Below, one piece after another: positions 49,866 through 64,000 of a DNA stretch of 64,000 bases; the first letter of the stretch is position 1, and the number at the start of each line of letters is the position of its first letter. This stretch comes from a virus (Duplodnaviria; Caudoviricetes): positions 60,819 to 124,818 of the IMG/VR virus record IMGVR_UViG_3300047491_000255. One strand, given 5' to 3'. The notes under the pieces were generated by a model. It worked only from the letters and a program-made list of their open reading frames with translations, did no database searches and was not told the DNA's origin. Both the position numbers and the translations under genes were made by a program.

Positions 49866-51545
49866 TCAAGGAACAATGAGTGGGACTCCGTTAGAGTTCC
49901 AGAGAGCACCGCTCGGAAGAGGATACGTCGTGGTCGGTAGAATGTCAATATCGGTCAGATACATATAACCTCCTACACCTGTTTTCCATTTGGCGCGCTC
50001 TGCTGATGTGGATGCGCCAATCCAAGAATTGTATGAAGCTGTGTCCAGATCAATAGAGTAGTTGGTGTTTGTTGTGTTATAGGCAAACCCAGTCTCGAAC
50101 AAGACATTGTGCCAGCGTGCTCGAAGAAGGGTCGAGGTACTGACCGGTTTCAGGTTTAAGCCTCCGCTGATCATCGTGGACTGGAGATTGTACGGACACA
50201 CGCTGCCGATCAACGGTCCTATCCCACTGCCAGCAGGCCCACCGCCTTGATGACCACCACCCCATCCGTAGGCAAAAAGATACGCTGTCCAGTCGTTGGT
50301 CGCAACAATAGGCCCGACCATCGCATCACGCAGGAAAATGTGCGCCAAATGAATTGTAGAAGTCGATTGCAGTGACGCTTGGCCTTGATAGGTCACCCCT
50401 CCACGAATACCAGCCTGGATGACGTGGAGCTCGTTGAACGGGGGCATGTCCGAGCCTTCAACGAGTTGGAAAGTTACTTTACCGGACACGCCAACGTAGC
50501 TGTGATTACCGTCCGCATACCCGGACCGCAGAGAGTCTCCCTTTATTACTACAGTGGTGCACCTTGGATCTCCACCACCATCAGGTATCATGTTGAAGGC
50601 GTTAGTCCTAACAAGATTACCTGCAATCAACGCTGATGAAAGTTCGATAGTCAGGTAAGGACGCCACGGAATAACCACATTCTCTGGATACACGCCTGGC
50701 ATCACTTTTACTGTGTAATATCGTTCGGAGTTGCTGTTTCTCCAGTCATTCACAGATGTCTCGTCACCAATAGCAGACATGGCCGCTGACACTGTCCGGA
50801 AAGGACGCATGATTGTTCCGTCTGACGTGAAGGAGTCCGTACGTTGATTATCCACATAGAGGATATGACTGGCTGCGTACAGCGAGTTCACGTAGCTCGT
50901 AGAGGCGAGACCATTAGTAGCCTTAACTAAGTCACTTGTCTTGGCAAGACCATTAGTGGCACTAATTAAGTCGCTTGTCTTGACGAGACCATTAGTAGCA
51001 CTAATTAAGTCACTTGTCTTGACGAGACCATTAGTAGCCTTAACTAAGTCACTTGTCTTGGCAAGACCATTAGTGGCACTAATTAAGTCGCTTGTCTTGA
51101 CGAGACCATTAGTAGCACTAACCAACTCACTTGTCTTGACGAGACCATTAGTAGCACTAACCAACTCACTTGTCTTGACGAGACCATTAGTAGCCTTAAC
51201 TAAGTCACTTGTCTTGGCAAGACCATTAGTGGCACTAACCAACTCACTTGTCTTGACGAGACCATTAGTAGCACTAATTAAGTCACTTGTCTTGACGAGA
51301 CCGTTAGTGGCCTTAACTAAGTCGCTTGTCTTGGCAAGACCGTTAGTGGCATTAATTAAGTCACTTACCAGAGCGAGTCCATTGCTACTGGCAAAAACCG
51401 CAACTGGTGGGTAGACCAACTTCTTCGTAGTATTACTGACTGTCACTGCCGAAGTAGCAATTGGAGGCACTGGACTAGTAGGAGCAGAATAAACTGTCCA
51501 CGCCGAGATCATCATCAATGTTATGAAAAATTTTCTCATACTCAT
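49866..51545 (-). CDS. fibre-like protein with signal peptide and 13-aa repeats
   Basis: MRKFFITLMMISAWTVYSA, ~12 TNGLxKTSxLxxA repeats, LYVD...DGT...PFRTVSAA beta-helix cap. Confidence 0.7.
   Translation of the reverse strand: MSMRKFFITLMMISAWTVYSAPTSPVPPIATSAVTVSNTTKKLVYPPVAVFASSNGLALVSDLINATNGLAKTSDLVKATNGLVKTSDLISATNGLVKTSELVSATNGLAKTSDLVKATNGLVKTSELVSATNGLVKTSELVSATNGLVKTSDLISATNGLAKTSDLVKATNGLVKTSDLISATNGLVKTSDLISATNGLAKTSDLVKATNGLASTSYVNSLYAASHILYVDNQRTDSFTSDGTIMRPFRTVSAAMSAIGDETSVNDWRNSNSERYYTVKVMPGVYPENVVIPWRPYLTIELSSALIAGNLVRTNAFNMIPDGGGDPRCTTVVIKGDSLRSGYADGNHSYVGVSGKVTFQLVEGSDMPPFNELHVIQAGIRGGVTYQGQASLQSTSTIHLAHIFLRDAMVGPIVATNDWTAYLFAYGWGGGHQGGGPAGSGIGPLIGSVCPYNLQSTMISGGLNLKPVSTSTLLRARWHNVLFETGFAYNTTNTNYSIDLDTASYNSWIGASTSAERAKWKTGVGGYMYLTDIDILPTTTYPLPSGALWNSNGVPLIVP
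50908..51375. repeat. 39-bp coding tandem repeat (~12 units)
   Basis: Directly visible. Confidence 0.9.
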
Positions 51546-52075
51546 GCCTCCCCGGCTGACCAACCCAATACACCATTCGACAACACCGGAGTATGCCATA
51601 AATTGTCTCCATAATCCCAAAACTGTATCGTCCCATCAGCCTTCTGTCTTACATTATTATTACCGAGATCGTTTAGAAACGGTATATTGGTCAATACTCC
51701 AAGAGTTCCATTTCCTCCAGATGTCGTAACCAATCCATTACTAGTCAAATTCGATATGCTGGTTATCGTAATTGCCGGACTGTTGATAATAACATTGCCG
51801 TATTCATCCTCTGGCACTGTTGATATTTTCTCGAATATGTCCCCGGTAAAAGAACCCGTCGGAGGAGGCTCCACTCCATAAAACCACTTCACCAACTGGG
51901 GGTCTTCGTACACTATGCCATCTCTAAGAATGATGTCGAGAGTAACGGCACCATTTGGGTCATAATTTACGACAAGACGAATCGCATTCTCGTATCGGGC
52001 AATGGTCGCACCGACCGGAATATATCGACCTAAAGCCGAGCAAAGAAAACGTGATTTACACCGATAGACTATCAT
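51542..52075 (-). CDS. putative structural protein
   Basis: 177 aa with fibre-like LTSNGLVTTSGGNGTL. Confidence 0.65.
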   Translation of the reverse strand: MIVYRCKSRFLCSALGRYIPVGATIARYENAIRLVVNYDPNGAVTLDIILRDGIVYEDPQLVKWFYGVEPPPTGSFTGDIFEKISTVPEDEYGNVIINSPAITITSISNLTSNGLVTTSGGNGTLGVLTNIPFLNDLGNNNVRQKADGTIQFWDYGDNLWHTPVLSNGVLGWSAGEA

Positions 52076-52318
52076 CTATTATCCTGTTTGTTTTAATTCC
52101 AGCCCCGTTAAGAGCGAGACATCAAACCAATCTACTCTCGCATTTTTGTTCCTACACTATCGACTACACCTTATCGATAAAATATCAACAAAAAAACACT
52201 CTTCTACACAGGAAGGGAATATCAAACAATTATCACGATTCAACTTCCATGACGATACTGAAGATTTTTGCGATTTCTGCAATGTCTACCTACGCATGAA
52301 CAATTTCATACGGCTTTT

Positions 52319-52582
52319 TCATGCTAGGATCGAACGCTTCTGATTTTTCGGGAGTTGCTTGATTGAATATTCGAGCCGTAGAGCCTCTCCGTGCCCCATG
52401 CCGCCCTTTTGAGCGATCAATCTGACTGGAAGCCGAGACCTGACATACCGTGAACCCTTGCCCATCTGGTGCTGTCTTAAACGCCTATCCAGATTGGTTG
52501 TGCAACCACAGTAAAGTTCTCCACCTCTGCACTCAAGGAGATAGACCGTCCATGCCTTCCCAACTGAATATTGAAGTTCCAT
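52319..52582 (-). CDS. GIY-YIG nuclease (YhbQ/UPF0213-like)
   Basis: WTVYLLEC..G.LYCG.TTNLDRRLRQH..GKGSRY...EALRLEY.IK. Confidence 0.85.
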   Translation of the reverse strand: MELQYSVGKAWTVYLLECRGGELYCGCTTNLDRRLRQHQMGKGSRYVRSRLPVRLIAQKGGMGHGEALRLEYSIKQLPKNQKRSILA

Positions 52583-52586
52583 TTTT

Positions 52587-52673
52587 TGGTGGGAAAAGAG
52601 GGACTCGAACCCTCACACCCTTTCGGGCACAAGCTCCTAAGGCTTGCGTGTCTGCCAATTCCACCACTCTCCC
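52587..52673 (-). tRNA. tRNA-Leu(TAG)
   Basis: Cloverleaf, CAAGC-CTTAGGA-GCTTG, long variable arm, encoded CCA. Confidence 0.95.
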
Positions 52674-52683
52674 GGAATCTATT

Positions 52684-52995
52684 TTAGCCCTGCGGTCCCT
52701 GAATCCCGCCTTGTGGTCCCTGAATCCCGCCTTGTGGTCCAACCACCGGAGGATTCTTCACTTCTGGCTCAATAGGCTGTCCATTGTCATCCTTCGACTT
52801 GTGGAAGTATGACATAAATACCATTGTGATGACAGCAAAGATAGCCTCCACACTCACAGGGAGAGGTTTGTCTGGATATTTCATATATGCTTGAAAATCC
52901 AGCAGAGTCATCAAAAGCAAACATGTTCCAGCAATGATTGTTAATAGCCAACGCCCGCTCGAAACCTGCACTACGACTCGATCAGTATTCTTCAT
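52684..52995 (-). CDS. two-TM membrane protein (holin-like) with GPQGGIQ tail repeats
   Basis: Two hydrophobic helices and a 21-bp repeat at the C-terminus. Confidence 0.6.
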   Translation of the reverse strand: MKNTDRVVVQVSSGRWLLTIIAGTCLLLMTLLDFQAYMKYPDKPLPVSVEAIFAVITMVFMSYFHKSKDDNGQPIEPEVKNPPVVGPQGGIQGPQGGIQGPQG

Positions 52996-53501
52996 ATGAT
53001 ACTCCTTTTAACACACATTCCACATGATTTCATCTCGTGACAGAAACCTCCCCTATACTCGCACTCTGGAACCAGAAACATCACCAAATCAGAATCAACC
53101 CACTTCATTTCATCCTTGATTGCCAACATGACATCCCGAGTCTCCTTGTGAGACTTGGAACAAAGTCTCTTCCGAGCCATATTGATAAGCGTCTGAGCAT
53201 TGACCAACATTCCATGATCCACAGGAGTTTTCCGATTCACATCCCCTGTACCACCACGATCATCCCTATTGGTCTGAATAAAATGTTCAGCACCAATCTT
53301 ATGCCGAACGAAATGTGTGCTTACAAACGAGGGAATCCCAGTCATCTCAATCCAAAAAACTTGGGTCCTACAAGGACTGTGTTCGCAATCATAGATTTCT
53401 TTCAACGTCATCTTGGAAGGTTTGCCATTCCCCCTCCATGTCATCTCACAAGCTCGTCTCATCAGAGACTCATCCGTCAATTTCTTAATAACAATCTTCA
53501 T
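52992..53501 (-). CDS. thyX: ThyX-like FAD-dependent thymidylate synthase family protein
   Basis: EHSP, IPSFVSTHFVRHK, NAQTLINMARKRLC, PECEYRGGFCHE. Confidence 0.7.
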   Translation of the reverse strand: MKIVIKKLTDESLMRRACEMTWRGNGKPSKMTLKEIYDCEHSPCRTQVFWIEMTGIPSFVSTHFVRHKIGAEHFIQTNRDDRGGTGDVNRKTPVDHGMLVNAQTLINMARKRLCSKSHKETRDVMLAIKDEMKWVDSDLVMFLVPECEYRGGFCHEMKSCGMCVKRSII

Positions 53502-53523
53502 GCTGGCTCCTTTTTACGCCATC

Positions 53524-53553
53524 ATTATATTCAAAGTGAGGCATCGGAGTCAA
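53524..53553 (-). promoter_or_regulatory. sigma70-like promoter TTGACT-N18-TATAAT
   Basis: Near-consensus -35/-10 upstream of the thyX-like gene. Confidence 0.7.
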
Positions 53554-53571
53554 CTGTTTGTGAAATATTAA

Positions 53572-53661
53572 TGGTGCCAGAGGTGGGATTTGAACCCACA
53601 ATCCCCTTGCGGAGAAACAGCGCTCTCGGCGCTGCGTGTTTGCCAATTTCACCACTCCGAC
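53572..53661 (-). tRNA. tRNA-Leu(GAG), C33 variant
   Basis: CAGCG-CCGAGAG-CGCTG anticodon arm, T-arm TTCAAAT, CCA. Confidence 0.9.
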
Positions 53662-53786
53662 TAAAACATCAGCCTAATCATTCCGCATGGCGGGCTGCGA
53701 CCTTCTCTTACGTGTTCTCATGCGGCACCGTTGTATGATCTCCCGCCACTAACGGCTTATCCGCTCCTCTGGACAACTGAAATAGT

Positions 53787-53962
53787 CGGACATGCCGTGT
53801 TCATCACAGAGTTGAACGGGCATCTCAGTCTCACGGTTCCCCGTCTAAATCCACCGATGTTTAACTCTGGACTGTTTCAACAACCAAAGGCAACTTCGCC
53901 GTTCAGGATTCCATCAGTCGCTTCCAACTGACTCTGCCTGCGTCTAATTCCGCCACATGTCC
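53787..53962 (-). ncRNA. tRNA-like RNA with expanded body
   Basis: Acceptor-like GGACATG/CATGTCC and Leu-type D-arm TGGCGGAATTAGACGC. No canonical anticodon arm, T-arm or CCA. Confidence 0.5.
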
Positions 53963-53964
53963 TT

Positions 53965-54049
53965 TGGTAGAGGTAGAGGGATTTCAACCCCCACGTCTTT
54001 CGACACTTCCTTTTGAGGGAAGCGTGTCTGGCAATTCCACCATACCTCC
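53965..54049 (-). tRNA. tRNA-Leu(CAA), atypical D/T loops
   Basis: CTTCC-CTCAAAA-GGAAG, T-loop TTGAAAT, D-loop GCC, CCA. Confidence 0.88.
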
Positions 54050-54145
54050 AAAAATCAAAACTTGAACTTCTACAACCTTTCGAGTTTCTTTTCCATCCCA
54101 CGCATATCCTTCAAACGACCTTCTTTATCTAGCCTCCTGACTCAA

Positions 54146-55366
54146 TCAACCCTGTTTACAAAGCCTATTCCAAGCCATTTCCGAAACTTTTCGGTAAAGA
54201 GCCTCCACCTTTTCCAGACTAATCTTCTCCGGCAGTTTGCACGACTTCTCTACCTCACGCAATTCCTTCATCTTCTCTTCCGCCATTGAAACCAATCTTT
54301 CATAGTCTGTGGTCTTGCCCGTTCGGATGTCCATGACCTGTTCTAGCGATTTTCCAGAAAGCCGAACCATTGGCTCTCCATACTTTGCCAGATGGAGTCC
54401 AGACAAAAGCAGCCTCATACAATGAGCCATATTTTTGGCATTGATGTGGCGTTTTCCGTCTTCATGTCCGGCATACCGCTCCTGATTACGCTCCCGAAAC
54501 CATGTCCAGTAAGACTGCCACAGCTTGACAGCTCTTTCATACTCATGCTCGTCATAAATCAAGATTCCAGCGAATCTGGTGTGTTCGTCGTCTATTGGGA
54601 TTGACTCGCAGACAAGCATATCGTCGCCTCGAAAGACACCCTTGCATTGAGGGTCTCCCAAGTAGCAATACAGACGATAGGCGTTTTGCATGTGCTCAAC
54701 AGCCGCCACATGGTAGTCTTTGAGGTTGATCCAAGGCATGTCCTTAATTAGGATTGGTCGAAATGGCATCCTTGGAGAAGGCATATCTGGATGAGTCCAC
54801 GCTTCGGCTCCTGGAATGCACGGAATAATCCTGCAGAAGTCTAGCTTTTTTGGACGTTCTACTGGTTCTGGATGGTTAGATTTCCTCGTAGTGCTATCAG
54901 CACGCTTGAACTGACCAATGGCATAACCACAATGTCTCGTTATACACTCCTTGGAGATAAAAATATCTCGATTGGCAATAACCTCCTGAAACTCTGGTGA
55001 CGAGCTAACAACACAGTCCTCTGGGACCCAAAGAGATTCAAGAACATTGGGAGCGGCCACTTTCAACAGGTCAAAAAATCTATGCAGGGTGTATGCAATG
55101 TCGTCGTTTTTCTTTTTCTCTACAGTCTCCCTTTGATCCGATATTTGCTCAATGGGAGCTCTGATTGACAAATAATGTGACATGGGAAGACAAAAAATAG
55201 AACGAACATCACGATCACTTGTTGGCAAATTGGTGCCATAACAATGACTACCTCCGACATACTCATAAAGCATGAACCCAGACTGCCTGACGAGATTAAG
55301 ACGGACCTCTGGATCATATTCCGTATGACATACTGCGTCTTCCAAAAGTTTTAAATTAACGTCCAT
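54146..55366 (-). CDS. Pol-beta superfamily nucleotidyltransferase (RlaP/YcgL-like)
   Basis: GSHCYGTNLPTSDRDVR, PNVLESLW, GYAIGQ, KNMAHCMRLL. Confidence 0.85.
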   Translation of the reverse strand: MDVNLKLLEDAVCHTEYDPEVRLNLVRQSGFMLYEYVGGSHCYGTNLPTSDRDVRSIFCLPMSHYLSIRAPIEQISDQRETVEKKKNDDIAYTLHRFFDLLKVAAPNVLESLWVPEDCVVSSSPEFQEVIANRDIFISKECITRHCGYAIGQFKRADSTTRKSNHPEPVERPKKLDFCRIIPCIPGAEAWTHPDMPSPRMPFRPILIKDMPWINLKDYHVAAVEHMQNAYRLYCYLGDPQCKGVFRGDDMLVCESIPIDDEHTRFAGILIYDEHEYERAVKLWQSYWTWFRERNQERYAGHEDGKRHINAKNMAHCMRLLLSGLHLAKYGEPMVRLSGKSLEQVMDIRTGKTTDYERLVSMAEEKMKELREVEKSCKLPEKISLEKVEALYRKVSEMAWNRLCKQG

Positions 55367-55790
55367 TTTCTCTCCTATCTGATTGCATAGTCGGCGCAGT
55401 AGTAAACGGATCGATCCTTCGTCAGGCCGAACGTGTCCGCCTCGACTCTGGCCAGCCGTGCCTTGTCATTGATGCCGTCATTCCCTCGGATCACCTCGAT
55501 AAGTGCTGCAAGCGGTTCACACGCGGCCCACGTTGTCCTGATTCATACGGTCTCCTTTGTGGTCCGCCGGAGTCTGACCGGCGGCGTTCTGTTTACTCAT
55601 TGCATCGTCCCTCGCTTGAGATAGTGCAGCATCCACTTCATTTCGTCCGTAGGGATCATTCCTCCAGCCGCGTGACTGTATCGCATCATCCCTAGATCAC
55701 CTGCACGGCGGTCAATCGTGCGTGGCAGAATCGCGTAGTGGTACAAGACTGCGCCTGCCGCAAGGCCGACAAGAAACAGAACAATCTCCT

Positions 55791-56081
55791 TCACGGTATT
55801 CTCCTTTCGTCGTGCCTGACCTGTTCGTTGGTGATACGCAATGCCGCGACTTCGGCCTCCAATTCGGCAATCCGCTTCATCGCTTCTTGCAGCTTGTACC
55901 ACGGCTGGTGTTTCTTTCTCTCTTCATACCGTTGGTCTGATAATTCACGGCGAGCCTTCACGCTGTCTGGGTGGTGTTGCTTGCACCATCCATCTTTCCA
56001 TTCCTTGCGGTTGCACTGGCTTTGCCTTGACCAGGGACCGCTAGAGACCAATGCCTTGCATTTTGTTTCGTCCATTGTCAT
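55791..56081 (-). CDS. small Cys/His-rich hypothetical protein
   Basis: C..C..WCKQHHP motif plus coiled coil. Confidence 0.65.
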   Translation of the reverse strand: MTMDETKCKALVSSGPWSRQSQCNRKEWKDGWCKQHHPDSVKARRELSDQRYEERKKHQPWYKLQEAMKRIAELEAEVAALRITNEQVRHDERRIP

Positions 56082-56374
56082 TCCCCCTTCAATTCGGACG
56101 CACCATCAACCGCGTCCAGACTAGTTCCGATTCGCTCCGCAATCTGACGCGGCTGTTGTTTGGGGTGACGGCGGTTCCACCTCGCGGAAACAATTGCCGT
56201 CGCCGGTTCGCGGATCAGGAAGTCGCATGCATTGACTTTCATGCGTGCAGAACACCCCGTACAATAGACGCTGGCCGACCTTGCACGCCCGACAAGCCTT
56301 GCCGACGCGCCGCAGAATGGGCACGCCAACAAGGCATCCGAGGCTACCTTCATCCGCTCGCTTCGCTCACTCAT
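56078..56374 (-). CDS. Lar-family restriction-alleviation-like Zn-finger protein
   Basis: LLACPFCG...VYCTGC...ARWNRR. Confidence 0.7.
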   Translation of the reverse strand: MSERSERMKVASDALLACPFCGASARLVGRARSASVYCTGCSARMKVNACDFLIREPATAIVSARWNRRHPKQQPRQIAERIGTSLDAVDGASELKGE

Positions 56375-56401
56375 TTCGGAGCCTCAACTTTCTCGTTGGG
56401 C
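56324..56401 (+). repeat. attC-like site
   Basis: CGCCAAC-AAGGC...CCTCAAC-TTTCTC-GTTGGGC. Near-copy of 553-629. Confidence 0.75.
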
Positions 56402-56667
56402 AGATACAGATTCTCGATTGGCAACTTGCCGGTTACTCGGAACATGACGCTGTTCCACAGGCCACGCACGCCAGAGAGTTTGAGCGATGTCATGCACTGG
56501 CTCGAACTCCCTCCAGTGACGCGATACCGCTTGCCGAGTTCAAGCGTGCTTCTGGCGCGCATGTTCTCTGCAGGGTATCCACCGCGTCCGTGGAACACTG
56601 CCCAACAAGCCTGTGCAGCCCTACGGCTGGCCCGCGACGGTTTCTGGTTATTCTTCGTTGTTCTCAT
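56371..56667 (-). CDS. hypothetical cassette protein
   Basis: 98 aa with C-terminal attC-encoded PNEKVEAPK. Confidence 0.65.
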   Translation of the reverse strand: MRTTKNNQKPSRASRRAAQACWAVFHGRGGYPAENMRARSTLELGKRYRVTGGSSSQCMTSLKLSGVRGLWNSVMFRVTGKLPIENLYLPNEKVEAPK

Positions 56668-57113
56668 GGCCCCTCTTTTATTGGAGGGTCGGGCTGTTCA
56701 GCCTTGGGGAACGTCGCCCCTAGCGATTCAAGCCACGCCTGTTCCTGGATGTTCAGACCGAGGACGACGGCAAGTTTCTGACAGACATGGAAGATCATCT
56801 TCCGGTCGGCTTCTGGTACTCGATCAGCCGAACCATAGGAGGCGGGTGGCTTGGCTGGTTCGGCTGGCTGTTTTGGCCTACGTGTCCGCCACACTGGCGG
56901 GTAGAACGGATAAGCCACATCAGCGGGGGTCGCATCTCGTCCTGTCTGGCACCATTGGCTGTCGTCGCGGTGCCATTTGTATTCGTCGAGCCATTGCGGC
57001 AGCTCGACGCTCGGGTCGAACTCGCGCCAAGACCCAACAAGGGGCTGCTGGTCAACAACAGTCTTCATGTTTTCCTTTCCAACCAGCCGAGGCTGACCGG
57101 CGTCGATCTTCAT
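56664..57113 (-). CDS. hypothetical protein
   Basis: 149 aa with ATGA coupling. N-terminus includes attC half-sites. Confidence 0.55.
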   Translation of the reverse strand: MKIDAGQPRLVGKENMKTVVDQQPLVGSWREFDPSVELPQWLDEYKWHRDDSQWCQTGRDATPADVAYPFYPPVWRTRRPKQPAEPAKPPASYGSADRVPEADRKMIFHVCQKLAVVLGLNIQEQAWLESLGATFPKAEQPDPPIKEGP

Positions 57114-57313
57114 TGCTCGTCTCCGAAGGCCACCACTCGGTTGGAATCAACACAAGCAACCTCGTCATACCGAACAGTCACTGTCACGACCCCGAGACCG
57201 TTCTGATATGCCCACAAGTCCTTGACCGGGTAAACATTCATCGTCTCTTCTTGAGTGTTGTCAGACCACACAACCATCTTCCGCCCATCCTTCAATAAAC
57301 AATATGTGTGCAT
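57110..57313 (-). CDS. hypothetical protein
   Basis: 67 aa, GAGG RBS. Confidence 0.6.
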   Translation of the reverse strand: MHTYCLLKDGRKMVVWSDNTQEETMNVYPVKDLWAYQNGLGVVTVTVRYDEVACVDSNRVVAFGDEQ

Positions 57314-57426
57314 GTTTCCTCACTTCCAGAACTTCGACAGCACCCGGAGATACACCCAACTCGGATGCTCTCCAACCTTCTCGCCGACCTGAGTTGACCG
57401 TTTAAACGAATCCCCTTGAAATTATT

Positions 57427-57648
57427 CTAGCGAAAGCATCCATCGAGTTCCCGCAGTTTCGTTGCGAGCTTTGCCGCTTCAGAGAGCAGTTCCCGCAGCA
57501 TGATTTCGAGCACGGGGTCGTCAACACAGGCCGCTTTGTGTGCCTGTCGGATGTCGATGGCGAGCATGTCAGCGCATTGCGCCGCCTTTGTGATTGCTTC
57601 TTCTTTGTCTTTGGATTTGGCTGTTGTCATGTTGCCTTTCTGGTTCAT
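57427..57648 (-). CDS. hypothetical protein
   Basis: 73-aa helical ORF. Confidence 0.55.
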   Translation of the reverse strand: MNQKGNMTTAKSKDKEEAITKAAQCADMLAIDIRQAHKAACVDDPVLEIMLRELLSEAAKLATKLRELDGCFR

Positions 57649-57668
57649 TCAGCGCCGAACCATGCGCT

Positions 57669-57883
57669 TCAGTGAGCGGTTGTGCCGTGACGGTAATCCC
57701 ACGCAGAAACCTGAGCAGGGACGCCGACGATCCAATGATATTCCTGCCCGTCATAGAGGTAGCAGAGTGTGGTATGCTTCACCCGGTAGTTTCCGTTGTA
57801 GAACTCAGGGACGGCCCCACAGAACGGGCACGCCAACAAGCCCGTCGAGGGCACGGCTCGATCCGCGTCGTTGCCCATGTCAT
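57669..57883 (-). CDS. Lar-like CPFCG Zn-finger protein
   Basis: GLLACPFCG...H...C...AW. Start lies inside the attC-like site; exact start uncertain. Confidence 0.5.
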
Positions 57884-57925
57884 GCCTCGCTTTCTCGCCG
57901 AGACCCCTCACGGGCGGCGTTCGGC
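57831..57925 (+). repeat. attC-like site
   Basis: CGCCAAC-AAGCC-CGTCGAGGG...CCCTCACG-GGCGGC-GTTCGGC. Confidence 0.75.
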
Positions 57926-58128
57926 AATGACGGAGGCACAAGCGGACCGACGAACAGGCCAACCTTGTCTGTCTGTGGCCCCTCAAGCATTACGGACCAG
58001 TACCTACCGTCCGTCTTGCCTTCATCGAGAAAGCATTTCGGAAGCCACCACCAGTACCCTTGTCGTGTTGGCCTTACCAGAGGTCCGACCGTATCCTCAT
58101 TCCGCTTCGCTTCATTCGTCACTGTCAA
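57880..58128 (-). CDS. hypothetical cassette protein
   Basis: 82 aa, AGGAGG RBS, PTRQGYWWW motif. Confidence 0.65.
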   Translation of the reverse strand: MTVTNEAKRNEDTVGPLVRPTRQGYWWWLPKCFLDEGKTDGRYWSVMLEGPQTDKVGLFVGPLVPPSLPNAAREGSRRESEA

Positions 58129-58147
58129 CCTCCTTGTTTACACCCAT

Positions 58148-58172
58148 ACATTACCGAAAGACGATTGAAATA
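58148..58172 (-). promoter_or_regulatory. phage promoter motif TATTT-N11-CGGTAATGT
   Basis: Repeated bipartite motif. Confidence 0.75.
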
Positions 58173-58176
58173 AGGA

Positions 58177-58773
58177 TTATTTCTTCTTTTGTTTTGTCAC
58201 AAACAGGAATAGATCATGTGAATCCTTCCTGAGCTTCTCCAAGTCCATGGGCACAACCTTCCTGTCCAGCCATGCCTTCGGCGTCTTATAGCCATCAAGA
58301 TTGAACCAGTGATCGAATTTGAGACTCCGAACGACATAAGGACTGTGCGTGATGACCAGACACCCCAGAGTCCCCTTGATCCTCTCCCGGAGATGCTCAT
58401 TCACCCACGTCACGACACCCATGATGGTTTCCTCAGAGCACCCCACCTCGATCTCGTCCAGAACCAGATAGCTGCCATAGACGGCATTGGATGCACAATT
58501 GAGAAAGTTGATCGTATTGACGCTAGTAGGGTCCCAGTCCGTATCTCTGGTAAAGATGCTCGCAACCCCATGATCCTGTGTTCTCAGACTCATCGAAATA
58601 TGAACCACCCTCTTGCCGAGCTTCTCCACCTCTTTTCGAAAGTTGAGTTGCTGTCGGATCAAGCTCTTTCCAGAGCCATTGCTACCCGTCAGCATGGATA
58701 TGGAGCCGTCCATCGGAATCTTCGAGTAGATGCTCACGATCCGGTCAAATTGTTTTTCAACAGTTACATTCAT
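58177..58773 (-). CDS. ABC-type ATPase
   Basis: GSNGSGKS, LVLDEIEVG, VITHS. Confidence 0.85.
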   Translation of the reverse strand: MNVTVEKQFDRIVSIYSKIPMDGSISMLTGSNGSGKSLIRQQLNFRKEVEKLGKRVVHISMSLRTQDHGVASIFTRDTDWDPTSVNTINFLNCASNAVYGSYLVLDEIEVGCSEETIMGVVTWVNEHLRERIKGTLGCLVITHSPYVVRSLKFDHWFNLDGYKTPKAWLDRKVVPMDLEKLRKDSHDLFLFVTKQKKK

Positions 58774-58779
58774 GTTTAT

Positions 58780-58804
58780 ACATTACCCAATCGGATTCAG
58801 AATC
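58780..58804 (-). promoter_or_regulatory. phage promoter motif variant GATTC-N11-GGGTAATGT
   Basis: Same spacing, two mismatches. Confidence 0.6.
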
Positions 58805-59003
58805 ATTTTCTTTTGTCGCAAACTCAGAGCACTTCGCCCCAGACAACCTATCATCTTTGCAGTTAGGACTGCCAAAGACCCGATTTCATCTGCCAAGGGA
58901 ATTCTCCAATTTGGCACAGGCTTTAACAGATCGCTCGCACTGGTGGCAACACGTATCTTCACAACCGATCTTCATCTTGATCCTTTCATACTCTTTTAAA
59001 AAA

Positions 59004-59141
59004 TGGCGTTCGATTCGGGCTTTTACCGCTTTCTTCCCACGAGTCTCGCACTACAACTCGTGAGCTTTCTGTGCCCCCTTGGCAGACGATATGAGATTGC
59101 ACTTGGCTCTCCACCATATCGGGGTAGCCATCCCCGGCACA
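59004..59141 (-). ncRNA. putative structured RNA downstream of tRNA-Ser(GCT)
   Basis: TGTGCC/GGCACA, GGGG/CCCC, GATATG/CATATC and CACGAG/CTCGTG helices. Ends CCA-TTTTT. Confidence 0.4.
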
Positions 59142-59144
59142 TTT

Positions 59145-59230
59145 TGGCGGAAGCGAGAGGGGTCGAACCTCCATATCCTTTCGGACGACGGTTTAGCAAA
59201 CCGTACCCTTACCATTCGGGACACGCTTCC
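59145..59230 (-). tRNA. tRNA-Ser(GCT)
   Basis: ACGGT-TTGCTAA-ACCGT, long variable arm, G73-CCA. Confidence 0.93.
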
Positions 59231-59236
59231 AGAAAT

Positions 59237-59539
59237 CTACAAGAATCCAACCACCTTCATTTTCTGAGCGAGCAACCAGACACCTCCCTGAGACGCTGGT
59301 CTCTTCAACTCAACAAAGTCTTCCACCTCTACTCTCATCCACACTCGACCCTTCATCGAAAGGTGTGGAGCACATGCAGTCAGGGTGACATGCCATCCCG
59401 GACGATGAGCATAGCCCTTCCGATGATGATCCTCTGCATCCATCCAGACTCCTAGTTGGATGACCTGCTTACGATTGATGAATAATGGTCCAATCGTTCC
59501 ATTACGCCGCATCCTCAACAACTTGAACGCTTTGACCAT
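59237..59539 (-). CDS. hypothetical phage protein
   Basis: AHRPGWH...PHL...SQGG.W motif, AGGAGG RBS. Confidence 0.75.
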   Translation of the reverse strand: MVKAFKLLRMRRNGTIGPLFINRKQVIQLGVWMDAEDHHRKGYAHRPGWHVTLTACAPHLSMKGRVWMRVEVEDFVELKRPASQGGVWLLAQKMKVVGFL

Positions 59540-59719
59540 TAATCCTCCTTGAACGTTGTTGTCTTGAACTTTCCTAAGTATTCAGTCAATTTCAACAACC
59601 AAATCGTAGTCTTGACTATCCGTCAAATGGACACATACCGTATGCCCTTGCGATGTAAACCACCCTATCGCCAGACCAACATCACCCTGCTTCTTCGTAT
59701 TCTTGTGACCAGTCAACAT
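59540..59719 (-). pseudogene. PD-(D/E)XK endonuclease remnant
   Basis: MLTGHKNTKKQGDVG...DSQDYDLVVEID*ILRKVQ, then a frameshift into KTT. In-frame TGA at 59582-59584. Confidence 0.6.
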
Positions 59720-59743
59720 ATTCTACCTCCCTTCCTGTCAAAA

Positions 59744-59831
59744 TGGTGTGAGCAGAGGGAATTAAACCCACTCGGATCCAAAGATGCGAGATTTACAGTC
59801 TCGCCCGCCTATCTTAGCGGTCTATGCTCAC
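59744..59831 (-). tRNA. tRNA-Tyr(GTA), atypical
   Basis: CGAGA-CTGTAAA-TCTCG, T-loop TTTAATT, CCA. Confidence 0.8.
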
Positions 59832-59888
59832 ATAAAGATACAGACTCCTGCCTTCGCCTCTAGGCATACCGACCCTTAAACAGATTTC

Positions 59889-59965
59889 TGGAGAGGAGTA
59901 TCGGACTCGAACCGATGAAATGCGGGTTTGCAATCCGCCGCCTTGACCAACTCAGCCAACTCCTC
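59889..59965 (-). tRNA. tRNA-Cys(GCA)
   Basis: GCGGA-TTGCAAA-CCCGC, U73-CCA. Confidence 0.92.
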
Positions 59966-60058
59966 AAAGATTCTTACTTCGCCCGACACCGAGCATTCTG
60001 CTTGGCAGTCGCAGAACCGATGTTACCAGAACTCCTCTTCGTCCTAGTGCATCCGTTC

Positions 60059-60445
60059 TTAATCTTCGTCGATTTTCGATGAACTTGCTCGTTTCGGAAT
60101 CCCTTCATTCAACTTCTTCCGGATCTTGAAATATTTCTTCGTCCATTCCGGGTCTTTGGGATCGAACCCCCATCCACTGATCTTGCACTGCTGTAAAACG
60201 CAAAGCTGCCTGAAGTGTGGAGGCACGATACACTTGCCGTCAACCACGAATGTCTTCCCGAATGGCATCTTCGGAAATGGATAACCTGCCTCAGTCATCG
60301 CATCTGCGGCAATCTGACAATATTCCGTCGAGCAGCATTGCCCAACCTGACGACAGACATCCTGACACTTTGCATTTGTCAGGTCTGCCATCTCCTGCCA
60401 CAGAGCCTCTTGTTCTTTTGTCATACTTGCTTTCTCCACTTCCAC
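60059..60445 (-). CDS. Cys-rich hypothetical protein
   Basis: C..VC...GQCC...C motifs. Confidence 0.65.
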   Translation of the reverse strand: MEVEKASMTKEQEALWQEMADLTNAKCQDVCRQVGQCCSTEYCQIAADAMTEAGYPFPKMPFGKTFVVDGKCIVPPHFRQLCVLQQCKISGWGFDPKDPEWTKKYFKIRKKLNEGIPKRASSSKIDED

Positions 60446-60969
60446 AAAAACCTGCGCCTGTAACTACCACTCCCGAAAGTAACATCCATCTTCATGTCCA
60501 GATCGTATCCAGCCTTCCGAATACCATCCTCGATCTCTGTCGTCCTCGCCTTCTCGCAAATCTCCTGAGCCGCCTCAAAGAGAACCACCCTTGGATGATG
60601 CTCCCCGATAATCCGCATGAACGTCTTGATGTCCGTACAGGATTCCGGGTTTGGCCCCCAATGAATCACCGCTCCACAAGCCCCAATGAACATCAGGACA
60701 TCCACCCGATCCACCCTTACGTCCTTGTCATCCTTCAACTCAAAGAGTGCCTTCCGTCCGAGTCTCTTTGCCTGCAACTCCTCTATGAAGTCCGGCTGAA
60801 CATCATTCCCGTAATAGAAAGCGTACCCTTCAAGGTATTCAAACACCGGAGCCTTGCCGCAGTTGAGATCAAGAACATGAGCACCTAATGCGTCATTCCC
60901 GATGACAGCCGCATAGAGTCTGCCCCTGCCGTCACTGAGTTCATTGAGATGTTTCCAGTAATCTGTCAT
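60421..60969 (-). CDS. class I SAM methyltransferase-like protein
   Basis: VLDLNCGKAP motif I. Confidence 0.65.
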   Translation of the reverse strand: MTDYWKHLNELSDGRGRLYAAVIGNDALGAHVLDLNCGKAPVFEYLEGYAFYYGNDVQPDFIEELQAKRLGRKALFELKDDKDVRVDRVDVLMFIGACGAVIHWGPNPESCTDIKTFMRIIGEHHPRVVLFEAAQEICEKARTTEIEDGIRKAGYDLDMKMDVTFGSGSYRRRFLWKWRKQV

Positions 60970-61517
60970 ACCACACACTCGAACCAATGAAGCGTCCTGA
61001 CACCCTTGAAATGAGGGAAGACTCCATGAACCACATTTCGGAACGTCCGGTTCAACGATCCCAAGAACTTCGCCTCTGAGAAGTAGTATTGTCGGTACTG
61101 CCCCGTCGGATCGAAATGACTTCCATCCTCCCTCTCGTAATCGCATGGATCAGCACTCACCCACACAACGATGTACACGACGCCCCCATCCTTCGTCACC
61201 CGGACATACTCATCTAGTGCTACCTGATAGTCGAACATATGATCGATGGTGCTCAGATCAACCAGCATGTCGAATATCTTGTTCTCGTAAGGCATCGCCC
61301 TTATATCCCCGACTGTTGCAACAAGACCAGGAAACTTGGATTGAGCCCTCCGAACACAATCGGAATCAATCTCAACACACTCCGCTCCAATGACATTGGC
61401 GATAGGCGTATCCCCATCAGCTTCGTTCCAGCAATCGGTTTTCAGGATTCTCTTGGGTTGATACCTACGAACCAAATCCTGAACTGCTGTCAGGTAATCT
61501 TCATGTATATGAGGCAT
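60966..61517 (-). CDS. class I SAM methyltransferase
   Basis: GDIRAMPY...FD...STIDH...EYVRVTKDGG. Confidence 0.8.
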   Translation of the reverse strand: MPHIHEDYLTAVQDLVRRYQPKRILKTDCWNEADGDTPIANVIGAECVEIDSDCVRRAQSKFPGLVATVGDIRAMPYENKIFDMLVDLSTIDHMFDYQVALDEYVRVTKDGGVVYIVVWVSADPCDYEREDGSHFDPTGQYRQYYFSEAKFLGSLNRTFRNVVHGVFPHFKGVRTLHWFECVV

Positions 61518-61537
61518 AGCCTCTTCCTTTCCTTTTT

Positions 61538-61613
61538 TGGCTGCTGGGACAGGACTCGAACCTGCAACGTCTTGATTAACAGTCAAGCGAACTACCAGTT
61601 GTTCTACCCAGCA
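61538..61613 (-). tRNA. tRNA-Asn(GTT)
   Basis: CTTGA-CTGTTAA-TCAAG, G73-CCA. Confidence 0.95.
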
Positions 61614-61770
61614 ATCTTCTCATCATCCCACACGAAAATCGCACTACCGACATTCGCACCCGTAGGTCCGTAACGATTCTTCACGATCACTCCATCCACA
61701 ATCACGACGTTGTAATTGAGCACCTTCCTCAGATTCAACTCATTCTGCGTCGTATGCCAAACTTCCCGAC

Positions 61771-61864
61771 TGGCGGAAGGAGAGGGATTTGAACCCCCGG
61801 TCGCTTTTTCGAACGACTCTCGATCTCGAATCGAGTGCGATAAACCAAACTCTGCCATCCTTCC
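61771..61864 (-). tRNA. tRNA-Ser(CGA)
   Basis: CTCGA-TTCGAGA-TCGAG, long variable arm, G73-CCA. Confidence 0.93.
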
Positions 61865-62244
61865 TATACCTCGCTCTCTTTCGGCTCCCTGAAGTTGTCA
61901 TCGTGATAACCCCAATGAACCCTTCCCTTTCGATCCACCACCGCCACATGTCCCGGCATCTGCTTGATCTCTCCCAGATACAGGAGCGACTCTCCCGCCT
62001 TCCACGGATACCGCCACTTCTTCTCCGTTGCCTTCCCGATCACAAGCTGCATCGGCTTGAAAGTCGCCTGCGGCTTTTTCCGGCATATCATCCCGCGAAT
62101 CGCATCCTCGTACTTCCGATGAATCGCACAATGTCCCCGCTCCCAACGATTCACTGTCGCAAACGCCACATTCAAAGCCTTGGCGAACTGATTCTGTGTC
62201 AGCCCGACAGATTCCCGAATCATCTTGAGTTCATGCCGCGTCAT
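61864..62244 (-). CDS. XRE-family HTH protein
   Basis: IRESVGLTQNQFAKALNVAFATVNRWERG. Confidence 0.85.
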   Translation of the reverse strand: MTRHELKMIRESVGLTQNQFAKALNVAFATVNRWERGHCAIHRKYEDAIRGMICRKKPQATFKPMQLVIGKATEKKWRYPWKAGESLLYLGEIKQMPGHVAVVDRKGRVHWGYHDDNFREPKESEV

Positions 62245-62540
62245 ACCTTCTCCTCAAAATGCGAACCAAAGATGTCAATCCCTCCCGGCACAAAGGCCAG
62301 AACCGCAACCGCATGAGCCGTCCGATTGAACTGATCGGCACATTCGCCCTTCTTGCCGCCGCCGAACAACAGGATGTCTCCACGCTCTCCGAGGATTTGA
62401 GATGTCTCCTGAGCCTTCTTCCGATCCTCTGCATCTGGTCCACCCTTAGCCTTGATCCTCTCAATCCAGAGCGGAATCGCCAATTGAAGCGCATTGCCGA
62501 GATTGGTCCCCGAAGAAGCTGATTCAGTTTTCTTTTCCAT
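62241..62540 (-). CDS. hypothetical phage protein
   Basis: 99 aa, LAFVPGGIDIFG. Confidence 0.7.
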   Translation of the reverse strand: MEKKTESASSGTNLGNALQLAIPLWIERIKAKGGPDAEDRKKAQETSQILGERGDILLFGGGKKGECADQFNRTAHAVAVLAFVPGGIDIFGSHFEEKV

Positions 62541-62546
62541 AACTCC

Positions 62547-62571
62547 ACATTACCGATCCTGTCCGATAATA
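62547..62571 (-). promoter_or_regulatory. phage promoter motif TATTA-N11-CGGTAATGT
   Basis: Repeated bipartite motif. Confidence 0.7.
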
Positions 62572-62586
62572 CGAAAAAAGAATTTT

Positions 62587-62671
62587 TGGTGCCAGAGAAG
62601 GGATTCGAACCCTCAATCCTTTCGGCAACGGTTTTTAAGACCGTTTTGTATTCCAATTCCAACACCCTGGC
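62587..62671 (-). tRNA. tRNA-Leu(TAA)
   Basis: ACGGT-CTTAAAA-ACCGT, CCA. Confidence 0.93.
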
Positions 62672-62789
62672 ATTAAAATCTGATTTCACACCACATTTTT
62701 ACTTGATTCCAGAGCTCCCCAATACCATCATGCCAGTCGCCTTATCATTGATAAAATCGCAGCAGTAGATACCGGCGGGGATTACATTC

Positions 62790-63011
62790 TCACCTGCATA
62801 CTCCTTCATCCACCGCATCTTCTCCTGGTCGTTGTGCAGTCCCCTTGGACCGACCACTTGACAGATCACTCGCCTCTTCGTCGGCTATCTCATCCTTTGA
62901 TGCCCGACGCTCAGCCTTGGCTGCGCTGCGCTTGGCAACTGGACGCAGATGCTTCCACCACGAAGCATACCGAATCCTTCCAACCAACGTATCTTTACGA
63001 ACATGTGCCAT
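62790..63011 (-). CDS. small basic hypothetical protein
   Basis: GAGG RBS, WWKHLRP...KAERR. Confidence 0.6.
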   Translation of the reverse strand: MAHVRKDTLVGRIRYASWWKHLRPVAKRSAAKAERRASKDEIADEEASDLSSGRSKGTAQRPGEDAVDEGVCR

Positions 63012-63095
63012 TTTCTAAATCCTCTCTACCCACGATGAGTGAGCTTCTACTACAATGACTGACAGAATACGAAAAACAGACCTTACATTTTTTTT

Positions 63096-63172
63096 TGGTG
63101 GGCGGTGAGAGACTCGAACTCCCAACATTCTGGGTGTAGACCAGATGCTCTAGCCAATTGAGCTAACCGCCC
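63096..63172 (-). tRNA. tRNA-Val(TAC), C33 variant
   Basis: TCTGG-TCTACAC-CCAGA, canonical D and T arms, A73-CCA. Confidence 0.9.
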
Positions 63173-63200
63173 ATGGGTGAGTGACCCGTGTCACCCACCT

Positions 63201-63230
63201 GAAACTTCAATATTCAGTTTTCAATGAACT
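63201..63230 (-). promoter_or_regulatory. boxA-like motif AGTTCATTGAAAACTGAATA and 5' arm of long-range helix
   Basis: rRNA-spacer-like sequence. 63201-63219 is complementary to 52562-52580. Confidence 0.55.
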
Positions 63231-63272
63231 CGGACAAATATCCAGACGAAATGTCCGGATTAACGTCCTCAT

Positions 63273-63360
63273 TGGCGGAAGGAGAGGGATTTGAACCCCC
63301 GACCCCTTTCGGGGTTTCGGTTTTCAAGACCGATGCTATAAGCCGCTCTGCCATCCTTCC
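63273..63360 (-). tRNA. tRNA-Ser(TGA)
   Basis: TCGGT-CTTGAAA-ACCGA, long variable arm, G73-CCA. Confidence 0.95.
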
Positions 63361-63364
63361 ATAC

Positions 63365-63455
63365 GACGGGCGCATTCAACCGTGCTCTGCCACTCGTCCC
63401 GAAGGACAAGGAGGGATTTGAACCCCCGAGGCCACCCGAAGGTGCCCTACCCGTC
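63365..63455 (-). ncRNA. circularly permuted tRNA-Ser-like RNA (acceptor stem closed by UUCG, no anticodon loop)
   Basis: Order 5'-GACGGG, variable arm, GGGGG-TTCAAAT-CCCTC, CTTGTCC-TTCG-GGACGAG, D-arm, CCCGTC-3'. Confidence 0.85.
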
Positions 63456-63457
63456 TC

Positions 63458-63544
63458 TGGTGCTCGAAAGAGGACTTGAACCTCCAAGGGATTTCTCCCC
63501 ACCAGTACCTGAAACTGGCGTGTCTGCCATTCCACCATTCGAGC
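63458..63544 (-). tRNA. tRNA-Leu(CAG)
   Basis: CCAGT-TTCAGGT-ACTGG, CCA. Confidence 0.95.
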
Positions 63545-63562
63545 GTCATCTCTATTATACTC

Positions 63563-63638
63563 TGGTGGGCACTCTCGGGATCGAACCGAGTTCTCAGGTT
63601 TTTCAAACCAGTGTAATTACCAAACCTACGCAATGCCC
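63563..63638 (-). tRNA. tRNA-Phe(GAA), atypical D-arm and U.U in anticodon stem
   Basis: CTGGT-TTGAAAA-ACCTG, T-arm TTCGATC, CCA. Confidence 0.85.
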
Positions 63639-63642
63639 GTAT

Positions 63643-63680
63643 AAACAAAAAGCCCCGTCTCCTTTTCCGGGAGAGGGGCT
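63643..63680 (-). terminator. intrinsic terminator (attenuator) upstream of the first tRNA
   Basis: AGCCCCTCTCC-CGGAAAA-GGAGACGGGGCT followed by TTTTGTTT. Confidence 0.85.
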
Positions 63681-63708
63681 TCTTTTTCGACTCATCCTGT
63701 GAATCAGA

Positions 63709-63786
63709 TCAGAGCAGACCCCTCCAGTAATTGCTATTGGAATAGCAACTTACATTAAAGAGACTGACTGACAATAACTGCTTCAC
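63709..63786 (-). CDS. attenuator leader peptide MKQLLSVSLFNVSCYSNSNYWRGLL
   Basis: AGGAG RBS 8 nt before GTG. Codons 4-20 are only Leu/Ser/Val/Phe/Asn/Cys/Tyr. Overlaps the antiterminator strand GGAGGGG. Confidence 0.75.
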   Translation of the reverse strand: MKQLLSVSLFNVSCYSNSNYWRGLL

Positions 63787-63829
63787 TTCATCTACTCCTG
63801 TTTTTCAAACCAATTCACGCAACACAGAT

Positions 63830-63859
63830 ACTATACTCCATAACCCCGAATCACGTCAA
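63830..63859 (-). promoter_or_regulatory. sigma70-like promoter TTGACG-N18-TATAGT
   Basis: Near-consensus hexamers ~45 nt upstream of the leader ORF. Confidence 0.7.
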
Positions 63860-63890
63860 CGCTTTTCTCAAACTTTTTTCTTACGTCCAT

Positions 63891-63915
63891 ACATTACCGA
63901 TTCTTGGCTTGAATA
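63891..63915 (-). promoter_or_regulatory. phage promoter motif TATTC-N11-CGGTAATGT
   Basis: Repeated bipartite motif, in tandem with the sigma70 promoter. Confidence 0.75.
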
Positions 63916-64000
63916 TGGATAAAAAGTTTTTTGTTCAAAACGTTGCATCAATCAAACAGATCGGTTAAGAACCCCTTTTCAGTCAGGTCTTCCTTGTTCT

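Follow-up and report, generated by a model that had tools for sequence, protein, structure and literature searches.

Directly upstream of an array of transfer RNA (tRNA) genes in the uncultivated viral genome IMGVR_UViG_3300047491_000255 (Duplodnaviria; Caudoviricetes) lies a short, terminated leader that is probably a ribosome-mediated leader-peptide transcription attenuator gating the phage tRNA array. In this reading the phage's tRNAs are probably made only when the codons of the leader are decoded slowly. The window analyzed here is a stretch of 64,000 nucleotides (nt), the last 64 kb of the linear 124,818-nt IMG/VR record, which is by estimate about 50% complete. A preliminary description, made from the letters of the window alone, had proposed a promoter, an AGGAG ribosome-binding site, a GTG-initiated open reading frame (ORF), and a strong terminator in front of 13 tRNA genes, and had interpreted them as a multi-amino-acid attenuator. 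The promoter (10 of 12 matches), ribosome-binding site, and ORF are present where it had placed them, and its core interpretation is supported by codon statistics, Shine-Dalgarno (SD) usage, masked folding, metagenomic relatives, and a second leader in Caulobacter phage RB23. The parts of the module and the unit that it would control are, in window coordinates:

63830-63859, minus strand: sigma-70-like promoter TTGACG-18 nt-TATAGT, with 10 of 12 matches in a promoter scan (-35 TTGACG at 63859-63854; -10 TATAGT at 63835-63830).
63795-63799, minus strand: Shine-Dalgarno sequence AGGAG, with an 8-nt spacer to the GTG.
63709-63786, minus strand: leader ORF with a GTG start, 25 codons, and a TGA stop.
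63727-63777, minus strand: putative sensing run, codons 4 to 20, 17 consecutive codons for only L, S, V, F, N, C, and Y.
63708-63772, minus strand: hairpin 1:2 inside the ORF, in which CUCUUU (63762-63757) pairs with GGAGGG.
63719-63725, minus strand: region 2, GGAGGGG in codons 21 to 23, predicted 5' strand of the antiterminator, masked by a ribosome at codons 18 to 26.
63643-63682, minus strand: intrinsic terminator, -20.7 kcal/mol, with a U tract at 63651-63643.
52587-63638, minus strand: putative gated unit of 13 tRNA genes and interspersed small protein genes.

The strongest evidence is the agreement between the codons of the leader and the tRNAs that follow it. ARAGORN finds 13 tRNA genes, all on the minus strand and beginning with tRNA-Phe, and 12 of them also reach the Rfam gathering score for tRNA. 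They comprise five tRNAs for Leu (tag, gag, caa, taa, and cag), three for Ser (gct, cga, and tga), and one each for Val, Phe, Asn, Cys, and Tyr, the seven amino acids that the preliminary description had assigned to the array. As it had also stated, codons 4 to 20 are restricted to these residues, and all seven occur among them. Under standard wobble the anticodons of the phage read 15 of the 17 run codons, the exceptions being GTC and TCC. Codons of the set have a frequency of 0.383, and the run of 17 is the longest in the six frames of the 124,818-nt record; the next longest (16, 15, and 14) are low-complexity Leu/Val stretches elsewhere.

Controls that preserve composition lead to the same conclusion. 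Three stretches were subjected to dinucleotide shuffling (the intergenic region, the interval from promoter to terminator, and the ORF alone), with runs counted in any frame, and for none of them did any of 20,000 shuffles reach 17, the shuffle maxima being 14 to 16. Among 31,362 comparison sets, comprising all seven-amino-acid sets that cover 22 to 26 codons, the set defined by the tRNAs ranks first for run length in the intergenic region, with a run of 15 for the runner-up. The codon-set match is far beyond chance; the naive probability of 1e-7 first attached to it was too optimistic, and the shuffle and set-rank controls replace that figure.

The leader carries a canonical 5-mer SD at an ideal distance from its start codon, and SD sequences are clearly used by the genes of this phage. 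A 5-mer SD precedes 35 of 124 crude gene starts, compared with 4.4% of random positions, and a 4-mer SD precedes 64 of the 124, compared with 13.6%. The region shows no general excess of promoter-like sites, with 9 found against 13.5 expected. A two-codon mini-ORF, ATG-AAG-TGA (63783-63791, minus strand), is read in a different frame across the GTG that opens the leader; its ATG lies only 3 nt from AGGAG, and it is kept in the two metagenomic relatives described below, contigs L099 and L130.

The leader transcript can adopt alternative pairings. Hairpin 1:2 joins codons 9 and 10 (CUCUUU) to codons 21 to 23 (GGAGGG) with a folding energy of -23.6 kcal/mol (z = -3.84), a value equaled by none of 200 shuffles. 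Its inner stem, TTGCTATT/AATAGCAA, lies at 63748-63741 / 63738-63731, within the sensing codons as had been noted previously. The terminator, whose strength and position were likewise recognized correctly, contains region 3, CCUCUCC (63676-63670), in its 5' arm and GGAGA-C-GGGG as its 3' arm, and four bases (63642-63639) separate it from tRNA-Phe (63638). Alternatively, GGAGGGG (63725-63719) pairs with CCUCUCC in a duplex of -15.1 kcal/mol as computed with RNAfold, and the whole antiterminator fold has an energy of -21.4 kcal/mol, versus -20.7 kcal/mol for the terminator. A pairing between GGAGGGG and the 5' arm of the terminator was part of the preliminary description; the pairing is retained, in a register shifted from the CCCCUCU named there to CCUCUCC, two bases further 3'.

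Folding was repeated with the transcript cut before the 3' arm of the terminator and a 30-nt ribosome footprint held unpaired. The pairing of region 3 with region 2 is then predicted to form with the A site at codons 2 to 11 and 14 to 17. No antiterminator is predicted with the ribosome at codons 12, 13, or 18 to 26 (stop included) or at the start codon, and the ribosome-free transcript folds into hairpin 1:2. An antiterminator for stalled ribosomes, and none for a ribosome at the stop, is the behavior that the preliminary description had named as the logic of known attenuators. As modeled under masking, the 1:2, 2:3, and 3:4 pairings follow the three-state logic of a classical attenuator.

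In the mechanism that we propose, transcription would begin at the promoter near 63830, and a ribosome would load at AGGAG/GTG and translate the 25-codon leader. When decoding is fast, the ribosome would reach codons 18 to 26 or the stop and cover GGAGGGG of region 2, terminator 3:4 would form, and the transcript would end 4 nt before tRNA-Phe. When any of the seven amino acids lacks tRNA that is both charged and intact, a stall at a run codon would separate region 1 from region 2, and the freed region 2 could pair with the 5' arm of the terminator, allowing RNA polymerase to continue into the tRNA genes and the genes interspersed among them. Since the leader is read by tRNAs that the array itself encodes, such a circuit would constitute a supply-and-demand feedback on decoding capacity.

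Relatives of the module were sought in metagenome_contigs by means of the terminator pattern, which returned 115 stretches, two of them (L099 and L130) genuine by BLAST; Logan contigs of run X4 carry the same variant. L099 and L130 keep both promoter hexamers unchanged, along with the AGGAG, the start codon, an intact frame of 25 codons, the hairpins, and the terminator. Within the ORF an AAT codon has been lost and a TTT codon, also a member of the set, gained, and the run stays at 17. The further changes are CTC to CTT, which is synonymous, TGG to GGG, and, in L130, AAG to AGT; the resulting residue changes, W to G and K to S, both fall outside the sensing run. Both indels in the ORF are 3 nt long. 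Those outside it measure 16, 21, 2, 1, and 1 nt, the short ones affecting the terminator loop (2 nt), the 5' arm (1 nt), and an A tract (1 nt). Of these two codons, AAT forms the internal loop of hairpin 1:2, and TTT was inserted in its apical loop; structure and reading frame account equally well for the codon-sized indels. Hairpin 1:2 has an energy of -23.1 kcal/mol in the relatives, the change of TGG to GGG extends the 2:3 helix to 9 bp (-27.1 kcal/mol), and the changes in the terminator are confined to the loop, a bulge, and one arm base. Masked folding of L130 predicts an antiterminator for stalls at codons 1 to 16 and none at codons 17 to 26. In L099 (4763-5100, minus strand) the 16-nt and 21-nt insertions lie in the 5' untranslated region, between the -10 hexamer and the SD, and the remaining module is unaltered.

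In L130 a different upstream gene is joined to the same module, from about window position 63915 on, which argues that the module belongs to the tRNA array. Comparison of L130 (2640-2980) with L099 (5116-10235) shows that L130 lacks a block of about 4.8 kb with genes for proteins of 299, 1219, and 92 amino acids (aa); in L099 this block stands between the leader module and a conserved gene for a 101-aa protein. The genes upstream of the module in L099 encode the 92-aa and 1219-aa proteins, and no further tRNA was found in the 5.8 kb upstream of the module. The 92-aa protein has 11 relatives in viral_contigs at 55 to 61% identity, none of them with tRNAs or with similarity to the leader. A Logan contig of X11 that spans 63641-63915 represents a more distant relative, with 19 other letters and 2 gaps, and a contig of X2 extends about 3 kb past the window end. 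A 21-nt stretch of the leader matched nothing in viral_contigs, and a loose three-motif pattern returned 41 stretches, none related by BLAST. Searches with neighboring proteins found two distant loci with other tRNA arrays for a 126-aa helix-turn-helix (HTH) protein and no relatives for the 241-aa and 99-aa proteins.

A leader of the same design occurs in an unrelated phage, Caulobacter phage RB23 (MZ574433.1), in front of its second tRNA block. The promoter TTGACA-17-TATAAG is followed by a 32-codon ORF (L173, 26475-26573), an intrinsic terminator (-31 kcal/mol), and a tRNA-like gene. The ORF contains a run of 15 codons, Y-R-Q-F-V-R-Q-I-Q-F-V-R-V-N-R, which none of 10,000 shuffles reached; without Tyr the run is 14 (P = 0.0001). 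When the sets are exchanged, the window leader attains a run of 3 with the RB23 set and the RB23 leader a run of 4 with the window set. The RB23 ORF also carries a near-copy of the terminator 3' arm, which in the folding model binds the 5' arm when the ribosome stalls at codons 1 to 16. In front of the first tRNA block of RB23 lies an annotated gene of 39 codons, in which the eight residues of that block make up a run of 15 (P = 0.02 to 0.03). The tRNA-like gene (L173, 26703-26786, plus strand), which lies between the leader terminator and the tRNAs Val, Ile, Val, Gln, Asn, Arg, and Phe, is an unannotated class-II gene with a CCA end and a Tyr-type anticodon loop. ARAGORN misses it, and its sole Rfam match is weak (tRNA-Sec model, 29.6 bits).

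The extent of the unit that the leader would gate bears on how the codon match is to be read. With only the residues of the first block (F, L, S, and V) the run is 7 (P = 0.048), and with those of the whole array it is 17. Matching the whole-array set and not the first block argues for an 11-kb stretch gated as one unit. A scan for hairpins followed by U tracts found about three strong minus-strand terminators in the whole 64 kb, one of which is the leader terminator, and no strong minus-strand terminator from 63640 to 53283. An internal promoter had been suspected near 62547, and the promoter scan does list a site at 62595-62566, a weak one (9 of 12). The small genes within the array include those for an HTH protein, a methyltransferase, and RlaP:

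54146-55366, minus strand: RlaP-family gene, RNA repair pathway nucleotidyltransferase (PF10127, E = 8.7e-19).

The spacer of 97 nt between tRNA-Leu(cag) and tRNA-Ser(tga) (63361-63457, minus strand) holds a T-arm-like sequence, GGGGGTTCAAATCCCTC, where ARAGORN makes no call. Only 9 nt separate these two tRNAs in L099 and L130, and a contig of X12 skips 63363-63457.

Upstream of the promoter lies a further conserved element:

63886-63905, minus strand: 20-nt element AAGAATCGGTAATGTATGGA, within a conserved block of about 55 nt upstream of the -35 hexamer, kept in L099 and L130.

The element has exactly two perfect copies in the 124,818-nt record, both on the minus strand. The second (4231-4212) heads a region of about 4 kb containing non-coding RNA genes, and similar A/T-rich flanks surround both copies. 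It has no match in viral_contigs and a single match in genome_contigs, in an unrelated coding region of a Bacteroidales metagenome-assembled genome. AAGAATCGGTAATGTATGGA may be a regulator site shared by the RNA genes of the phage or, alternatively, a promoter for them.

Several observations weigh against attenuation of the array or limit how far it can be extended. The covariation of leader codons with tRNA sets that the preliminary description had proposed to look for in other phages is seen in RB23, with its different matching set, and in none of nine further phages (drawn from matches in the phages collection, with one from a viral locus), where none of 28 blocks and none of 12 arrays gave P <= 0.01. 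The design is not general, and the choice of RB23 for testing was not blind. Many of the surveyed arrays serve almost all amino acids, a situation in which the codon-set test is powerless, and upstream windows of 300 nt missed the RB23 leader, which lies beyond the unannotated tRNA-like gene and is recovered with 350 nt. The codon-matched leader is thus a real design that recurs but is restricted to certain lineages, and the test does not give positives indiscriminately. Within the window leader each amino acid occurs only one to five times and never in tandem runs, unlike in classical leaders. The short run obtained with the first-block set means that the match requires the whole 11-kb array to behave as a single unit; that assumption relies on the terminator scan, which detected none within the array, and promoter-like sites do occur inside it.

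The structural evidence has limits of its own. The 2:3 duplex alone is not significant, being equaled by 6.7% of dinucleotide shuffles of the whole leader and 8.2% of shuffles of its last 63 nt. Stalls at 12 of the 17 run codons are predicted to free the antiterminator, and those at the other five (12, 13, and 18 to 20) are not. In models of the truncated transcripts of L130 and RB23 the antiterminator forms even without a ribosome, and in RB23 the same crude model also forms it with the ribosome at the stop. Equilibrium folding is a crude model, and the switching logic that it predicts is not identical everywhere. At about 93% identity in the module, the relatives are too similar to the window to offer compensatory covariation. 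The end of the upstream gene is as conserved as the module (2 differences in 53 nt), and the identity of the module may therefore reflect recent common descent and not selection; an argument for purifying selection from higher identity in the module was rejected on the same grounds. For this uncultured phage, we infer that the leader is translated and that read-through is regulated, and the trigger, too, is a matter of inference.

Explanations that give the ORF no sensing role are, taken together, improbable, and they differ in which observations they leave unexplained. The terminator might be a temporal or leaky gate, passed through low constitutive read-through or with the help of a phage antitermination factor, that yields a leader RNA of about 180 nt and to which the ORF is irrelevant, a situation for which the short terminated late-promoter transcript of lambdoid phages provides the comparison. 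The layout of promoter, leader of this length, strong terminator, and operon would fit, AAGAATCGGTAATGTATGGA, a conserved repeat by the promoter that recurs at another RNA-gene region, could be the site of such a factor, and the 2:3 pairing alone is not significant. A gate, however, leaves to chance a codon match that none of 20,000 shuffles reached and a set that came first among 31,362, and does not account for its recurrence in RB23 with another matching set, for the SD and start codon, or for the codon-sized indels. The Q-type antiterminator families PF06530 and PF03589 have no match in the 124,818 nt of this record, itself about 50% complete. We regard a gate of this kind as unlikely.

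We view with similar doubt the possibility that the leader is an independent small gene, for a stable small RNA or for a 25-residue (secreted or lipid-anchored) peptide, with the tRNAs transcribed by incidental read-through or from another start. Such a gene would own its promoter and terminator, as this unit does, and the unusual stability of the hairpin in the ORF (z = -3.84) is of the kind found in structured small RNAs; the N-terminal half of the peptide also loosely resembles a short signal sequence ending in Cys. Against this, the gap of 4 nt between terminator and tRNA-Phe is too short to hold a promoter, the module stays with the tRNAs even where another gene lies upstream, and the match to the tRNA set goes unexplained. 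The peptide has no Pfam or PHROG match, and the residue before the putative lipobox, Asn in the window, is lost in the relatives, which indicates that the peptide motif is not conserved; assignment to a lipoprotein or a known peptide family was rejected because no family matched and the residue before the Cys is not conserved. A chance match is more improbable still. About 250,000 windows were scanned, so rare coincidences are expected to surface in a post hoc choice, and the run, in a T-rich intergenic region, is itself T-rich, a composition that favors codons of the set, but shuffles that preserve composition never reach the run, which is the top run of the whole record. The tRNAs, moreover, dictate the set, which holds first place among 31,362, the design recurs in RB23 with another set, and no positive appeared in the 28 blocks of nine other phages.

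If the attenuator operates as proposed, the question arises which shortage it would report. A bolder and decidedly speculative possibility is that the leader is the sensor of an inducible response to tRNA damage, in which depletion of any of the seven tRNA families by a host defense (an anticodon nuclease or another effector aimed at tRNAs) or by phage-induced stress would stall the ribosome and release replacement tRNAs and RNA-repair functions such as RlaP as one unit, and that similar codon-matched attenuators form a widespread class, so far unpublished, with which phages would gauge how well the infected cell can decode. The presence of RlaP in the gated unit makes tRNA cleavage by host defense, a trigger put forward in the preliminary description, attractive; it is not evidence for such a trigger.

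The surroundings of the module are those of a phage with nearly all of its genes on the minus strand. Base counts on the plus strand of the whole record (C, 35,116 versus G, 23,569) reveal a strong strand asymmetry, in line with this placement of the genes. The module is housed entirely in the 309-nt gap between the stop of the upstream gene (TGA, 63950-63948) and tRNA-Phe (63638), and window base 64000, 140 nt upstream of the -35 hexamer, is the end of the record. At least 99% of sampled words from 62000-64000 are present in three runs belonging to two lake or freshwater metagenome studies, and the record may derive from these runs. Similarity to the phages collection is limited to single tRNAs, at no more than 10% of the query. 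ARAGORN places a tRNA-Met(cat) gene and a transfer-messenger RNA (tmRNA)-like gene with the tag AHLQNARVSTTSG at record positions 60174-60917, before and across the window start; these genes sit about 60 kb downstream of the module, outside the tRNA array. A match to the type-P5 twister ribozyme occurs at window 2943-3031 (minus strand), with 48.6 bits against a gathering score of 37.6.

The reason for which phages carry tRNA genes is a matter of debate, and recent reports name compensation for codon usage and escape from tRNA-cleaving defenses (PMC10264068, PMC11464382, PMC11555353); the regulation of these genes has received little attention. Our literature search, which covered articles, found no account of attenuation of phage tRNA genes. 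Should the proposed attenuator be real, the phage would gauge the decoding of exactly those codons that its tRNAs serve and would express the tRNAs on demand, and the leader would reveal which shortages the phage expects, making the debate testable. Textbook leader-peptide attenuation would extend to tRNA genes and to viruses, and annotators would gain a rule for finding small translated ORFs before tRNA arrays.

Among cellular systems, the trn operon of Anabaena sp. PCC 7120 offers a parallel at the level of the regulated genes. It is described as a silent tRNA array that is induced under translational stress (PMC8421152, PMC10272220) and controlled by the transcriptional repressor TrcR (PMC10272220). 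Like the phage array it is a set of accessory tRNAs, off by default in Anabaena and on when translation is impaired; unlike the phage module, it is described as cellular, plasmid-borne, and repressor-controlled, and the two main texts contain no occurrence of "attenuat," "leader," or "terminator." A counterpart in design is the RB23 leader, which shares with the window leader a near-consensus promoter, a short ORF matching the tRNAs that follow, a potential antiterminator strand within the ORF, and a terminator. It differs in having no sequence similarity, in its set (Y, V, I, Q, N, R, and F), and in belonging to a GC-rich host lineage; its ORF starts 9 nt after the -10 region, and its stop is, in the model, too far from the antiterminator strand to mask it. 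T-box riboswitches (RF00230) resemble the module in being terminator/antiterminator switches that report the status of tRNA, but in a T-box the RNA itself contacts the uncharged tRNA and an ORF is not required, whereas the module has a leader ORF. A T-box was rejected as a candidate, with no match at E <= 1 in 50000-64000 and none in the 125-kb record; controls for this search matched in 5 of 14 genomes.

Described leader-peptide attenuators regulate genes for amino acid biosynthesis or for aminoacyl-tRNA synthetases. At pheST, where pheM is the leader, attenuation controls a synthetase and senses one amino acid; the phage module would likewise apply leader-peptide attenuation to the decoding machinery and not to metabolism, and differs from pheST in that tRNA genes would be controlled and seven amino acids sensed. 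The multivalent leaders of enterobacteria, those of ilvGMEDA and thr, and the leaders of trp, his, leu, and pheA provide the structural model. As in attenuators of the ilv, thr, and trp type, a promoter is followed by an SD-led ORF with reporting codons and by predicted 1:2, 2:3, and 3:4 pairings, of which 2:3 would exclude the others, and a ribosome at the stop is predicted to mask region 2. Five sequence-level features of leader-peptide attenuators are present, the antiterminator as a prediction, and one is absent since the regulated genes are tRNAs. Unlike leaders of the ilv and thr type, which precede biosynthetic enzymes, the phage leader would report on seven amino acids, mostly through single dispersed codons in place of tandem runs, and would regulate tRNA genes, whose own products would take part in decoding it.

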